Assembly: GCA_963662465.1 (NCBI GenBank)
Contig: OY759599.1
Coordinates: 704,001 to 768,000, forward strand
Source of the DNA: Desulfatiglandales bacterium
Lineage (GTDB): Bacteria; Desulfobacterota; DSM-4660; Desulfatiglandales; Desulfatiglandaceae
Reading direction: 5' to 3'
Length of the DNA stretch: 64,000 nt
Under the pieces are notes generated by a model. The model saw only the letters and a list, made by a program, of their open reading frames with translations. It made no database searches and was not told where the DNA came from. Positions 1 through 63,536 of the stretch are shown in pieces; position 1 is the stretch's first letter, and every line of letters starts with the position of its first letter. Position numbers and translations under genes: made by a program.

Positions 1-846
1 GCCTATGTGGTTTCGGAAGAGGGAGGGTTATTGGGTGTACTTCGCCTGAGGGATCTGCTGCTGGCCCCCAAGAACAAACCGGTCACGGATATTATGATCA
101 AGGACCCTCAAAACGTTCGCGTCGATAACCCTTTGCGGGATTTGAAAGAATTTTTCAAACAGTACAACTATTTAGGCGTACCGGTGGTTGACTCTCGAAA
201 CAGACTTGTGGGTGTGGTCAATGCCGCCGCCGTAAGAGACGCGGTGAATAAGCGGAGCAACCAGATTTTCCTTCAATTTTCGGGCATCGTCGGCGGTGAG
301 GAATTCAGGACCATGCCGTTGTTTAAACGCTCTTCAAGGCGCTTGTCATGGTTGAGCATCAATATCCTGTTGAACATTGTCGCGGCCAGCGTCATTGCCC
401 TGTACCAGGACACTCTTGAGCAAGTCATTGTGCTGGCGGTTTTTCTACCGATCATATCGGATATGAGCGGCTGTTCCGGTAATCAATCGGTGGCTGTGAG
501 CATCCGTGAATTGTCTCTGGGACTCGTGAGACCCAAGGAGTTGTTGCGGGTTTTCCTCAAAGAATCGTCCATCGGCGTCATCAACGGCGTGGTACTGGGG
601 CTATTGTTGGGAGGGGTCGCTTTTCTCTGGAAAGGAAACCCATATCTCGGGTTGGTGGTGGGGGTGTCCCTGGCCGCCAACACCCTGGTGGCGGTCAGTT
701 TCGGAGGGCTGATTCCCCTGGTCCTGCGGCGGGCGGGCGCCGATCCGGCCCTGGCATCCGGACCTTTATTGACCACCATTACCGACATGTGTGGCTTCTT
801 TTTCGTATTGAGTTTTGCCTCGGCACTTCTTTCAAAGCTTTCGTAA
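1..846 (+). CDS. mgtE: Magnesium transporter MgtE (5' end outside the window)
   Basis: Frame open from base 1; CBS pair followed by the MgtE membrane domain (RRLSWL, PIISDMSGCSGNQS, DPALASGPLLTTITD). Confidence 0.92.
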   Translation, partial: AYVVSEEGGLLGVLRLRDLLLAPKNKPVTDIMIKDPQNVRVDNPLRDLKEFFKQYNYLGVPVVDSRNRLVGVVNAAAVRDAVNKRSNQIFLQFSGIVGGEEFRTMPLFKRSSRRLSWLSINILLNIVAASVIALYQDTLEQVIVLAVFLPIISDMSGCSGNQSVAVSIRELSLGLVRPKELLRVFLKESSIGVINGVVLGLLLGGVAFLWKGNPYLGLVVGVSLAANTLVAVSFGGLIPLVLRRAGADPALASGPLLTTITDMCGFFFVLSFASALLSKLS

Positions 847-59696: not shown

Positions 59697-59717
59697 GCAA
59701 CTGCTCCCTGTGAGTGG

Positions 59718-61523
59718 TTATTTGCCCTGCGCTTCCTCCGCATTCAAAAAGCAGATGCGCTCAAAGCCCAGGGCCGCCGCCACGAACCTTTTGAGCCGCA
59801 GGTCCCGGTACTTGTCTGCCAGCCGGTTTCCGTAGTCTAGGGCCTGTGCCCTGCCTTTCCCAAGCGCCCGCGCAACCTGGGGCAGCGCATACAGTTCGTT
59901 GGAAGACAGGCTTCGAATAGCCTCCCCGCTGAGACCCAGGTCTTTGAGACTCAGAAATTTGAACTCGATCAACACGTCAAAAATGCTCAGGTATCGCTTG
60001 TCCGGCCGGATGATCATGGTGAGGTCCGCGTAGCGGCGTTCCAGCTCCGGTTCCGAATCCATGATATAGAGAATGTCGTTATAGAGCAGCGCCAGAAAAG
60101 CGGTCTTGATGGTCAGCTCATTGGCCTGGGCATAATCCCGGTTTTTGAACACGGTAAAAAGATGGTCCTCCACAAAGGCGCATACCGGCTGGATGTCCCC
60201 TTCCTGATAGACCTTTTCAGCCGCCAGCCGACCCCTGTCCCGAATCACGGGGTCCGGCAGCATCATGCGTCGCACCCGTTCTACGTACAGGCTCTGCATT
60301 ACCAGGTTCGGGACCTTCAGGGCGAGTTCCCCCCGGGGCGTCTCGCCTACCAGGGTCAGCACGCCGAAATAGTAGAGAAACGAGGCGATGAAGGTCCTGT
60401 CCCTGGATTGATCGGAAAGCATCTCAGTGAGGCCGAAGCGTTTGCTGATCCTGGGAATGACCACGCTCGCATCCCTTTGGGTCAGTGTGAAGACCATCTC
60501 TCGACCTCCCGGAAGATCCGCCGTGTACATAAGCTTGGACTCGTCCACGGCCAGGTTGGCGTCCAGCATTTCAGTGGGGTAGGCACATCCGGATTGGAAT
60601 TCATCAAAGAAATAAAGGCACAGCGTGGGATTGTACACCGGAGTGGTCTGCTCGGGCGCAAACCGGTAGCCGTTATACCAGGTGCGCATCATCATAAGCG
60701 CTTCCCGGGCGTCTTCCTTTTCGAGTCCGCAATCCTCGGCAATGTCATATAGCGTCTTTTCCACCTCTTCTTCCCTGAACCCGCAAAGGTCGGCGAACCG
60801 GGGGGCAAAAAAAATATCCCTGGCGATGTTGTGTCCGCTGGTGATATCGCTCATGACCACCGGCGACACCCCGGTGATGAACACCCGGTCGAACCCGGTT
60901 CCGGAGGTGGAGGCCTTTACTACCTTGAACACGGTCTTCAGAAGCCCTTCATCATGGACCATCGCTTTATATCGGGTGCGGGAATCCAGGGTGGGCAACA
61001 TCATGATGGTGTTGGCGAAATTGTCGTATTCGTCGATGAGGAGAAATACCGGATGGCCGAATGTCTTCGTTGAAGAAATAAGGGATTGAATGGAAAACAG
61101 CGCATTTGCGCGGTCGATTTCCATATGCGGCAGATGAAACCCCTGCGCCCCATAAGTTTGTGCAAAATCCAAAATAGCGCCGTTGATGTGATCATACAAA
61201 GACCGCTTCACATCCTCGGGTGTGCCGGTAGGGTCCACGCAGGAAAAATCCAGGCGCAGAATGAAATAGCTGTTTCGCGGGGGGGTGGGGTTGCGGCCGA
61301 TGGCAAGATGCCCAAAGATCTCATTAAAAGCGTCTTTTCGGGCGATGTCGTAGTAGTTTTCCAGCATGGACAAGAGCAGACTCTTGCCGAACCGGCGGGG
61401 GCGGATAAAAAGCTGGCTCTTCCCCTGTTCCAGCAAAGGAATGGACCCGGTGCGATCACAATAAAAATATCCCTCGGTGATGATTTGTCTGAAATCCGCC
61501 ATTCCATAGGGGAATTTGATCAT
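59718..61523 (-). CDS. AAA-ATPase-like plus PD-(D/E)XK nuclease protein, copy A
   Basis: FPYGMADF, Walker A RPRRFGKS, Walker B LIDEYDN, FITGVSP, WYNGY, YNP; nuclease YADL...IEFK. Confidence 0.9.
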   Translation of the reverse strand: MIKFPYGMADFRQIITEGYFYCDRTGSIPLLEQGKSQLFIRPRRFGKSLLLSMLENYYDIARKDAFNEIFGHLAIGRNPTPPRNSYFILRLDFSCVDPTGTPEDVKRSLYDHINGAILDFAQTYGAQGFHLPHMEIDRANALFSIQSLISSTKTFGHPVFLLIDEYDNFANTIMMLPTLDSRTRYKAMVHDEGLLKTVFKVVKASTSGTGFDRVFITGVSPVVMSDITSGHNIARDIFFAPRFADLCGFREEEVEKTLYDIAEDCGLEKEDAREALMMMRTWYNGYRFAPEQTTPVYNPTLCLYFFDEFQSGCAYPTEMLDANLAVDESKLMYTADLPGGREMVFTLTQRDASVVIPRISKRFGLTEMLSDQSRDRTFIASFLYYFGVLTLVGETPRGELALKVPNLVMQSLYVERVRRMMLPDPVIRDRGRLAAEKVYQEGDIQPVCAFVEDHLFTVFKNRDYAQANELTIKTAFLALLYNDILYIMDSEPELERRYADLTMIIRPDKRYLSIFDVLIEFKFLSLKDLGLSGEAIRSLSSNELYALPQVARALGKGRAQALDYGNRLADKYRDLRLKRFVAAALGFERICFLNAEEAQGK

Positions 61524-61571
61524 TGCGTAAAACCCTCCGTGTTATTCGTGGTGAAAAGAAGGTTGCCGTGG

Positions 61572-63377
61572 TTATTCGCCCTGCGCTTGCTCCGCATTCA
61601 AAAAGCAGATGCGCTCAAAGCCCAGGGCCGCCGCCACGAACCTTTTGAGCCGCAGGTCCCGGTATTTGTCCGCCAGCCGGTTTCCGTAGTCCAGGGCCTG
61701 TGCCCTGCCTTTCTCAAGCGCCCGCGCAACCTGGGGCAGCGCATACAGTTCGTTGGAAGACAGGCTTCGAATAGCCTCCTCACTGAGACCCAGGTCCTTG
61801 AGACTCAGAAATTTGAATTCGATCAACACGTCAAAAATGCTCAGGTATCGCTTGTCCGGCCGGATGATCATGGTGAGGTCCGCGTAGCGGCGTTCCAGCT
61901 CCGGTTCCGAATCCATGATATAGAGGATGTCGTTATAGAGCAGCGCCAGAAAAGCGGTCTTGATGGTCAGCTCATTGGCCTGGGCATAATCCCGGTTTTT
62001 GAACACGGTGAAAAGATGGTCCTCCACAAAGGCGCATACCGGCTGGATGTCCCCTTCCTGATAGACCTTTTTAGCCGCCAGCCGACCCCTGTCCCGAATC
62101 ACGGGGTCCGGCAGCATCATGCGTCGCACCCGTTCTATGTACAGGCTTTGCATTACCAGGTTCGGGACCTTCAGGGCGAGTTCCCCCCGGGGCGTCTCGC
62201 CTACCAGGGTCAGCACGCCGAAATAGTAGAGAAACGAGGCGATGAAGGTCCTGTCCCTGGATTGATCGGAAAGCATCTCAGTGAGGCCGAAACGTTTGCT
62301 GATCCTGAGAATGACCACGCTCGCATCCCTTTGGGTCAGTGTGAAGACCATCTCTCGACCTCCCGGAAGATCCGCCGTGTACATAAGCTTGGACTCGTCC
62401 ACGGCCAGGTTGGCGTCCAGCATTTCAGTGGGGTAGGCACATCCGGATTGGAATTCATCAAAGAAATAAAGGCACAGCGTGGGATTGTACACCGGAGTGG
62501 TCTGCTCGGGCGCAAACCGGTAGCCGTTATACCAGGTGCGCATCATCATAAGCGCTTCCCGGGCGTCTTCCTTTTCGAGTCCGCAATCCTCGGCAATGTC
62601 ATATAGCGTCTTTTCCACCTCTTCTTCCCTGAACCCGCAAAGGTCGGCGAACCGGGGGGCAAAAAAAATATCCCTGGCGATGTTGTGTCCGCTGGTGATA
62701 TCGCTCATGACCACCGGCGACACCCCGGTGATGAACACCCGGTCGAACCCGGTTCCGGAGGTGGAGGCTTTTACTACCTTGAACACGGTCTTCAGAAGTC
62801 CTTCATCATGGACCATCGCTTTATATCGGGTGCGGGAATCCAGAGTGGGCAACATCATGATGGTGTTGGCGAAATTGTCGTATTCGTCGATGAGGAGAAA
62901 TACCGGATGGCCGGCACTCAGGGTCACGCCCAGTAAGGACTCGATTGTGGACAAGGCGTCCTCTGGATTGATCCTGGTTCCGGACAAATCAAAACCGTTG
63001 TCTCTGTAATAGCGAACAAAATTTTCGATATGGACGTTGATGTGGTTATATAAAGACCGCTTCACATCCTCGGGTGTGCCGGTGGGGTCCACGCAGGAAA
63101 AATCCAGGCGCAGAATGAAATAGCTGTTTCGCGGGGAAGTAGGGTTGCGGCCGATGGCAAGATGCCCAAAGATCTCATCAAAAGCATCTTTTCGAGCGAT
63201 GTCGTAGTAGTTTTCCAGCATGGACAAGAGCAGACTCTTGCCGAACCGGCGGGGGCGGATAAAGAGCTGGCTCTTTCCCCGTTCCAGCAAAGGAATGGAC
63301 CCGGTGCGATCACAGTAAAAATATCCCTCGGTGATGATTTGTCTGAAATCCGCCATTCCATAGGGAAATTTGATCAT
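61572..63377 (-). CDS. AAA-ATPase-like plus PD-(D/E)XK nuclease protein, copy B
   Basis: Same motifs and length (601 aa from the homologous ATG) as copy A. Confidence 0.9.
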   Translation of the reverse strand: MIKFPYGMADFRQIITEGYFYCDRTGSIPLLERGKSQLFIRPRRFGKSLLLSMLENYYDIARKDAFDEIFGHLAIGRNPTSPRNSYFILRLDFSCVDPTGTPEDVKRSLYNHINVHIENFVRYYRDNGFDLSGTRINPEDALSTIESLLGVTLSAGHPVFLLIDEYDNFANTIMMLPTLDSRTRYKAMVHDEGLLKTVFKVVKASTSGTGFDRVFITGVSPVVMSDITSGHNIARDIFFAPRFADLCGFREEEVEKTLYDIAEDCGLEKEDAREALMMMRTWYNGYRFAPEQTTPVYNPTLCLYFFDEFQSGCAYPTEMLDANLAVDESKLMYTADLPGGREMVFTLTQRDASVVILRISKRFGLTEMLSDQSRDRTFIASFLYYFGVLTLVGETPRGELALKVPNLVMQSLYIERVRRMMLPDPVIRDRGRLAAKKVYQEGDIQPVCAFVEDHLFTVFKNRDYAQANELTIKTAFLALLYNDILYIMDSEPELERRYADLTMIIRPDKRYLSIFDVLIEFKFLSLKDLGLSEEAIRSLSSNELYALPQVARALEKGRAQALDYGNRLADKYRDLRLKRFVAAALGFERICFLNAEQAQGE

Positions 63378-63417
63378 TGCGTAAAACCCTCCGTGTCCCA
63401 TGGTCCGCATTCTTTGC

Positions 63418-63486
63418 CATGAAAATGCAGCCGTTAGCTATTAGCTGTTAGCCGTTAGCTTAAAAGCGGTGGATGTTATTTTCATG
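63418..63486. repeat. Small element with CATGAAAAT/ATTTTCATG inverted ends enclosing four GCYRTTA heptamers
   Basis: Inverted ends at 63418-63426 and 63478-63486; gccgtta gctatta gctgtta gccgtta at 63430-63457. Confidence 0.7.
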
Positions 63487-63536
63487 CGCGGGGGCGGTAA
63501 AACCCCTTATCATAGCTGTTTACATTTACAAAGCTT

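Follow-up and report, generated by a model that had tools for sequence, protein, structure and literature searches.

The closest described relatives of the locus analysed here belong to the DUF1703 family, which combines an AAA-ATPase_like domain (PF09820) with a PDDEXK_9 domain (PF08011) and was defined in PMC1913061 by the motifs RPRRFGKS, DEYD, a sensor-1 Gly, YNP and nuclease motifs I-IV. In Cardinium cCpun, an expansion of DUF1703 paralogues with intragenic recombination has been described, and their function was called unknown (PMC6387759). The family and recombination among its paralogues are already published, and the word 'undescribed' in the initial annotation of our locus does not apply to the family itself. 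That locus is a tandem pair of genes in a 64,000-nucleotide stretch of a Desulfatiglandales bacterium (the window; contig OY759599.1, positions 704,001 to 768,000; source genome G000). It resembles the DUF1703 genes of Cardinium in domain order, motifs, multi-copy expansions and recombination among paralogues, and it differs from typical DUF1703 genes in belonging to a subfamily of 590-600 aa with PF08011 scores under the cut-off. The Cardinium paper describes no homogenisation, gives no breakpoints or hot segment in its section 14 and Table S4, and in these parts does not describe a fixed cassette with cross-lineage allele classes (PMC6387759). New here are a near-perfect two-allele pair, a quantified contrast with equally divergent regions, the cross-lineage allele classes and a putative placement of the cassette at the initiator-specific motif (ISM) of the ATPase fold.

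The twin frames follow each other with a period of 1854 bp, in repeat units at 59714-61542 and 61568-63396:

59718..61523, minus strand: copy A, the downstream twin, an intact 601-aa DUF1703-type ATPase-nuclease gene
61572..63377, minus strand: copy B, the upstream twin, an intact 601-aa frame
61059..61181, minus strand: cassette allele A, residues 115-155 of copy A
62913..63035, minus strand: cassette allele B, residues 115-155 of copy B
61543..61567, no strand: unique spacer of 25 bp between the 1829-bp repeat units, running into the ribosome-binding leader of the family

The two proteins differ at 39 residues, of which 28 lie among the 41 of the block (residues 115-155) and 11 among the 560 outside it, where the scaffold is 98% identical. 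At the DNA level 103 bases differ, 68 of 123 in the block and 35 of 1683 outside. The initial annotation had described two intact 601-aa genes with this period, 28 differing block residues and about 11 differences elsewhere; the same frames and period were found, the recount gave exactly these numbers, and the block sequences that it quoted were correct. The start of copy B was set by the open reading frame (ORF) finder at 63410, 11 codons before 63377, but the latter position is favoured because the GGAGGG leader in front of it is common to copy A and the paralogues.

Misassembly was tested with Logan contigs from four of five listed public runs, the best of which (X1/X2) may be the source sample. 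Block B was matched without differences by a 198-base contig at a depth of 36.4 (single-copy flanks, 33-44), and block A, also without differences, by a 585-base contig from another sample. The B-A junction was bridged by a 422-base contig with a depth of 37.7, and the scaffold common to both twins collapsed to a depth of about 60. The single-copy depth of block B, the bridged junction and the raised scaffold depth together fit two copies better than strain alleles of one locus. No contig spans the entire pair, which, like the possible identity of the best runs with the source sample, leaves some room for a tandem join of two strain alleles of one gene; against these depths, and with the same twin arrangement present in other genomes, such an artefact is extremely improbable. 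The simple reading is that the twins are two real copies, and the collapsed or mis-joined variant that the initial annotation had wanted checked against reads was not what the contigs indicated.

Variation across the family was examined in a pool of 304 distinct full-length homologues at >=42% identity, with 31 shorter or more distant ones excluded. Three discrete block alleles were found in 11 homologues whose scaffolds were 87-100% alike, and one pair (P0070 and P0097) had an identity of 1.00 outside the block and 0.58 inside. When near-identical clusters were scored, the most different 41-residue window fell on the block in 11 of 23 (two of the 25 clusters contained no pair within the identity limits), compared with 0.16 per cluster expected from a simulation by the between-lineage difference profile (P about 4e-4). 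Swaps, defined as 45-residue windows at <=70% identity in groups with scaffolds >=93% identical, affected block windows in 12-15 of 30-32 groups (14/30 for window 113-157, query pair included), counts that overstate independence because several groups come from one 46-member cluster. Outside the block, windows in 325-379 were swapped in 5-6 of 30-31 groups, those in 525-579 in 4-5 of 29, and most others in none. Between lineages, region 250-294 diverges about as much as the block does, but it was swapped in 0 of 32 groups.

The same block also stood out in more distant relatives. Tandem copies in G693, from a subfamily only 30% identical, had a scaffold identity of 0.97 and a block identity of 0.49; members of a second subfamily in the source genome, 30% identical to the twins (G000:C1:2194667, 3125909 and 7437776), were 85-87% identical outside the block and 42-67% inside; and in many pairs of the canonical 520-aa DUF1703 type the block was the most divergent part. 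Block swapping is a real, general feature of the DUF1703 family. As many independent sets of paralogues vary in this one block, uniform variation along the gene, the case by which the initial annotation could have failed, is ruled out, and its proposal of a homogenised scaffold with an exchanged module is supported. The block is the main exchanged segment, although not the sole one, as two weaker swap regions exist.

One of these regions contains a second two-state segment, residues 318/358-361 (window about 60440-60570 in copy A), in which a charge swap takes place: E318 is found with R358/K361, and K318 with D360/361. E318-R358 was the top covarying pair (z 7.6), and the segment was swapped in 6/31 groups. 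The third region, 525-579, was swapped in 5/29 groups.

A perfect array with a period of 1881 bp and 9+2 intact copies was found at G473:C1:3076782-3093611 and 3104487-3108149 (L113 and L114). The array is mosaic along the whole gene, with a diversity peak at codons 121-160, where pi reached 0.22 and 0.18 compared with <=0.11 elsewhere. It adjoins a canonical 518-aa DUF1703-type gene, and its neighbours include large tetratricopeptide repeat (TPR)-like, glycosyltransferase-like and flagellin-like ORFs, names guessed from N-terminal sequence.

The dN/dS comparison that the initial annotation had proposed gave, for blocks A and B, a proportion of synonymous differences (pS) of 0.80, which is saturated, and a proportion of nonsynonymous differences (pN) of 0.41, hence a ratio below 1; outside the block, dS was 0.061 and dN 0.009. 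Block A is 76% identical to the blocks of P0002, P0003, P0004, P0008 and P0201, whose scaffolds are 76-78% identical; block B and the block of P0006 are likewise 76% identical (scaffolds 78%), whereas A and B are 38% identical to each other over the same 45 columns. A quick scaffold tree joined A and B with a support of 100. In the block tree they lay on opposite sides of the midpoint split, its deepest, and their monophyly was rejected by the approximately unbiased (AU) test at p 0.013, from only 45 columns. The 93 sequences >=66% identical to A fell into 13 block classes at 70% linkage, and within a class the block was as conserved across lineages as the scaffold (0.76-0.82), with lower means of 0.59-0.72 for other surface regions. 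To judge from these sequences, the blocks are old discrete allele classes on a homogenised scaffold, rather than products of hypermutation; 'hypervariable', as the block had first been called, overstated the case. Either the classes predate the lineage split, or blocks move between lineages.

Of 73 distinct swap pairs, which are not independent, 72 have both helices of the block exchanged at once. Over the 73 pairs the breakpoints are not shared, as the initial annotation had supposed they might be, and scatter in the conserved flanks (first difference at 96-115, last at 145-172), so that ordinary homologous recombination suffices and no dedicated recombinase is needed. Site-specific cassette shuffling of the shufflon or invertase type was rejected, as breakpoints are not fixed and the G473 array is mosaic along the whole gene. 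A diversity-generating retroelement was also rejected: the changes show no bias towards adenine (15 adenines in A and 17 in B at the 68 sites that differ), and neither a template nor a donor for block A or B was found in G000, where the best other match was 69%.

In theory, selection that keeps two versions should show as a sharp peak of divergence against a converted background. Sequence divergence, however, should in theory also block gene conversion, and because homology loss alone can shield a block from conversion, the peak could also be neutral: a tolerant surface would have diverged early and been copied only whole, with no selected specificity. The saturated pS and dN/dS below 1, the scattered breakpoints, the mosaic G473 genes and the two other divergent regions, which behave alike but more weakly, all agree with such an escape from conversion. 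It does not account well for the equally divergent region 250-294, which is never swapped, for the swapping of the same block in the 30%-identical subfamily of G693, or for within-class conservation that equals that of the whole scaffold and exceeds that of other surface regions; we therefore regard it as unlikely.

In the Pfam scan, PF09820 covered residues 5-228 of the twins as a full profile (E 2.8e-44 and 7.6e-44), and PF08011 was detected in their C-termini at 19.1 and 19.7 bits, below the curated cut-off of 25.5; many homologues at 61-63% identity carry PF08011, and the Atlas clusters nearest to the twins are 100% PF08011 + PF09820. In an alignment of 121 sequences, R41-S48 (RPRRFGKS), D164-D167 (DEYD), G218, Y297 and N298 were invariant and P299 nearly so, and the nuclease residues E469, D500, E520, K522 and Q560 were all invariant. 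The nuclease motifs of copy A are placed as follows:

59958..60119, minus strand: PD-(D/E)XK motifs I-III of copy A (E469, D500, E520, K522), with motif IV (Q560) after them

By profile and motif, the twins are members of the DUF1703 family, with a PF09820 ATPase, a PD-(D/E)XK nuclease and all family motifs present. No match for the twin proteins was obtained in NCBIfam, and the Pfam scan found no repeat domains in them, the C-terminus being the nuclease.

The structure model of the twins shows the core fold of the signal-transducing ATPases that have numerous domains (STAND), made up of a nucleotide-binding, a helical and a winged-helix domain (NBD-HD-WHD). The NBD-HD-WHD core is predicted to be STAND/Orc1-like, and a PD-(D/E)XK domain is predicted to come after it. 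STAND ATPases have N-terminal hhGRExE and C-terminal GxP motifs, of which YFYCDR at 19-24 and YNP at 297-299 in the twins are possible, non-canonical variants. In the model, with pLDDT values of 82-92 across the block, the order of strands (E) and helices (H) is E86-92, H102-126, loop, H141-153, E159-164; residues 115-155 make up the C-terminal part of helix 102-126, a long loop and helix 141-153, a stretch with strand 2 before it and the Walker B strand after it. The ISM helix of STAND ATPases sits between strand S2 and helix H2 (PMC6468293), and the block would thus occupy the position of the ISM-loop-H2 hairpin, by topology and not by residue-level superposition. This would put the 'specificity or oligomerisation module' of the initial annotation at a known oligomer and regulatory surface of STAND proteins, in agreement with it as far as position is concerned.

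Compared with the archaeal STAND-type ATPases PAB2304 (2qen) and SSO1545 (2fna), and with PH0952/MalT, Apaf-1, CED-4 and the cores of plant nucleotide-binding leucine-rich repeat (NLR) proteins, the twins are 10-13% identical, have no repeat sensor domain, carry the nuclease C-terminal to the core and have an atypical Walker A. Structures of Avs and bacterial NLR-like STAND proteins (8dgc, 8dgf, 9jap) were among the fold matches of the model. As in these anti-phage systems, a STAND-like ATPase is joined to an effector in the twins. In Avs proteins the effector is N-terminal and a TPR sensor C-terminal, and their ligand-triggered oligomerisation is used here as a working analogy. The twins, by contrast, lack a sensor domain, match nothing in PADLOC and do not lie in a defence island.

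The hairpin position is also compatible with a self-assembly code, in which ISM-loop-H2 hairpins would form the inner ring of an oligomer and each allele would assemble with its own kind, insulating paralogues from each other and from broken or inhibited copies. In the Apaf-1 apoptosome, as described in PMC5050015, alpha12(ISM)-loop-alpha13 lines the pore and touches adjacent copies of itself. With both interface faces inside the block, exchange of the whole block (72/73 pairs) and free combination with other segments would follow, and covariation within the block runs in helix-pair register (111-140, 115-143, 116-146, 119-150), R116 pairing with E/D146 and C116 with Q/K/R146. However, a scaffold that is 98% identical leaves little function to insulate, and the covarying pairs may be contacts within a subunit, in a signal that is weak (effective number of sequences 129, with phylogenetic noise). 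We consider such a code not very probable. Less probable by far is a DNA-binding role like that of the Orc1/Cdc6 ISM collar, in which the alleles would serve an ATP-dependent restriction-like nuclease as modules for target recognition: the blocks range from neutral to acidic (A -1, B -3), and with no cognate methyltransferase or other partner conserved among 97 neighbours, self-protection would be unexplained.

The explanation that we tentatively prefer, as quite possible if short of probable, is that the 41-residue hairpin is a specificity surface for an outside protein partner, in a STAND-like switch without a sensor domain. The DUF1703 protein would rest as an inactive monomer, and the exposed face of the hairpin would be the docking site of a trigger or inhibitor protein, for instance one carried by a phage or other mobile element; docking is placed there because the protein has no sensor domain of its own. 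ATP-dependent oligomerisation would then gather the nuclease domains, and nucleic acid would be cut. Homologous recombination would keep homogenising the scaffold, and balancing selection for several specificities per cell would hold the block alleles apart, resulting in a small repertoire of receptors. Of the readings considered, the likeliest is thus a specificity surface whose diversity is held by balancing selection.

Several observations weigh against this specificity surface. No block swap was found in 16/30 groups, and independence between the groups is incomplete; it is common for paralogues to carry one and the same allele, as G000 6148429 and 1136031 do (scaffold identity 0.90, block identity 0.98), and the two members of the G210 pair are identical. 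That the block lacks internal homology is also a simple enough reason for its being exchanged whole, and, as block dN/dS is below 1, there is no direct sign of positive selection. The ISM assignment is topological only, from a model that is middling overall (mean pLDDT 68.8). No defence-island setting was found around the family loci examined, and PADLOC 2.0.0 (library from 2023) returned 0 families for 2/2 twin proteins at E 0.001. The literature search yielded no experimental paper on the family.

That search, whose coverage left most subscription journals outside, turned up neither a description of a fixed Walker A-B cassette nor an experimental function for DUF1703. The passages of PMC7159879 and PMC8195603 on STAND conflict systems of multicellular bacteria do not include the family, and the PF09820 matches listed for RADAR, PARIS and Old-tin belong to different architectures (PMC10952713). 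Compared with the PD-(D/E)XK nucleases CinB/CifB of Wolbachia and the Medea-associated DUF1703 homologue of Tribolium, the twins have no CifA-like antidote or conserved neighbour; clear nuclease-site differences between DUF1703 and the cytoplasmic incompatibility (CI) toxins are reported in PMC6387759.

The twin pair is flanked by convergent housekeeping genes, a DUF948 gene and a serine O-acetyltransferase-like gene with hexapeptide repeats, which we take to be cysE:

59712..63536, no strand: whole insertion, from the DUF948 gene to the serine O-acetyltransferase-like gene, empty in G010

The gap 59697-63536 is a variable site, empty in G010, of the same genus, and filled by the twins in G000; in G007 a membrane-protein ORF lies next to DUF948, and G004 and G006 have another ORF, presumably cysteine-synthase-like. 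Upstream of copy B, at 63434-63461, are four tandem TTAGCNN heptamers, of a kind that in our estimation resembles the intergenic heptamer repeats of Beggiatoaceae and cyanobacteria; G000 holds 91 arrays of >=3 such heptamers, and the bin holding them had a depth >2000 in two runs. Besides seven close full-length members (61-100%; the twins and five more), the source genome carries three of about 30% identity as well as weaker matches and fragments. Directly upstream of the paralogue at 1136031 are two ORFs (G000:C1:1133289-1134293 and 1134795-1135844) that, from their N-termini, we assume to be a reverse transcriptase and an Rpn/YhgA-like protein.

DUF1703 is large, with 5419 clusters at 50% identity matching at E up to 1e-10. 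Repeated expansions occur in symbionts, to which the named loci add sulfur bacteria, Chloroflexota and sulfate reducers. The subfamily of the twins is patchy, in 7/401 genomes drawn phylum-wide and 51/401 within one order. Its named carriers (L034-L111) include Parabeggiatoa, Thiomargarita, Marithrix, Viridilinea, Anaerolineae and Lamprocystis, many of which we take to be filamentous, giant-celled or aggregate-forming. The 'defence system' of the initial annotation is so far unsupported, there being no PADLOC or NCBIfam match, no partner gene conserved among the 97 nearest neighbours and no defence island, and the genomic context gives classical anti-phage defence no support. The patchy distribution, the expansions and the connections to Medea and CifB make a role in conflict plausible.

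These results narrow the variation of the family to a single hairpin, placed in the structure and carrying alleles that are old and shared. Natural pairs (A/B, P0070/P0097) that differ almost only in the block open the function to direct tests. Should the block be a recognition surface, an NLR-like receptor would be diversifying inside its ATPase domain and not in a sensor domain. It may even be, although we put this forward with some doubt, that DUF1703 proteins are widespread sensor-less NLR-like immune nucleases, in which recognition has moved to the ISM hairpin of the ATPase and cross-lineage allele repertoires, like those of the major histocompatibility complex, are shuffled on a common scaffold; the twins would then be a natural experiment, differing almost only in the recognition site.

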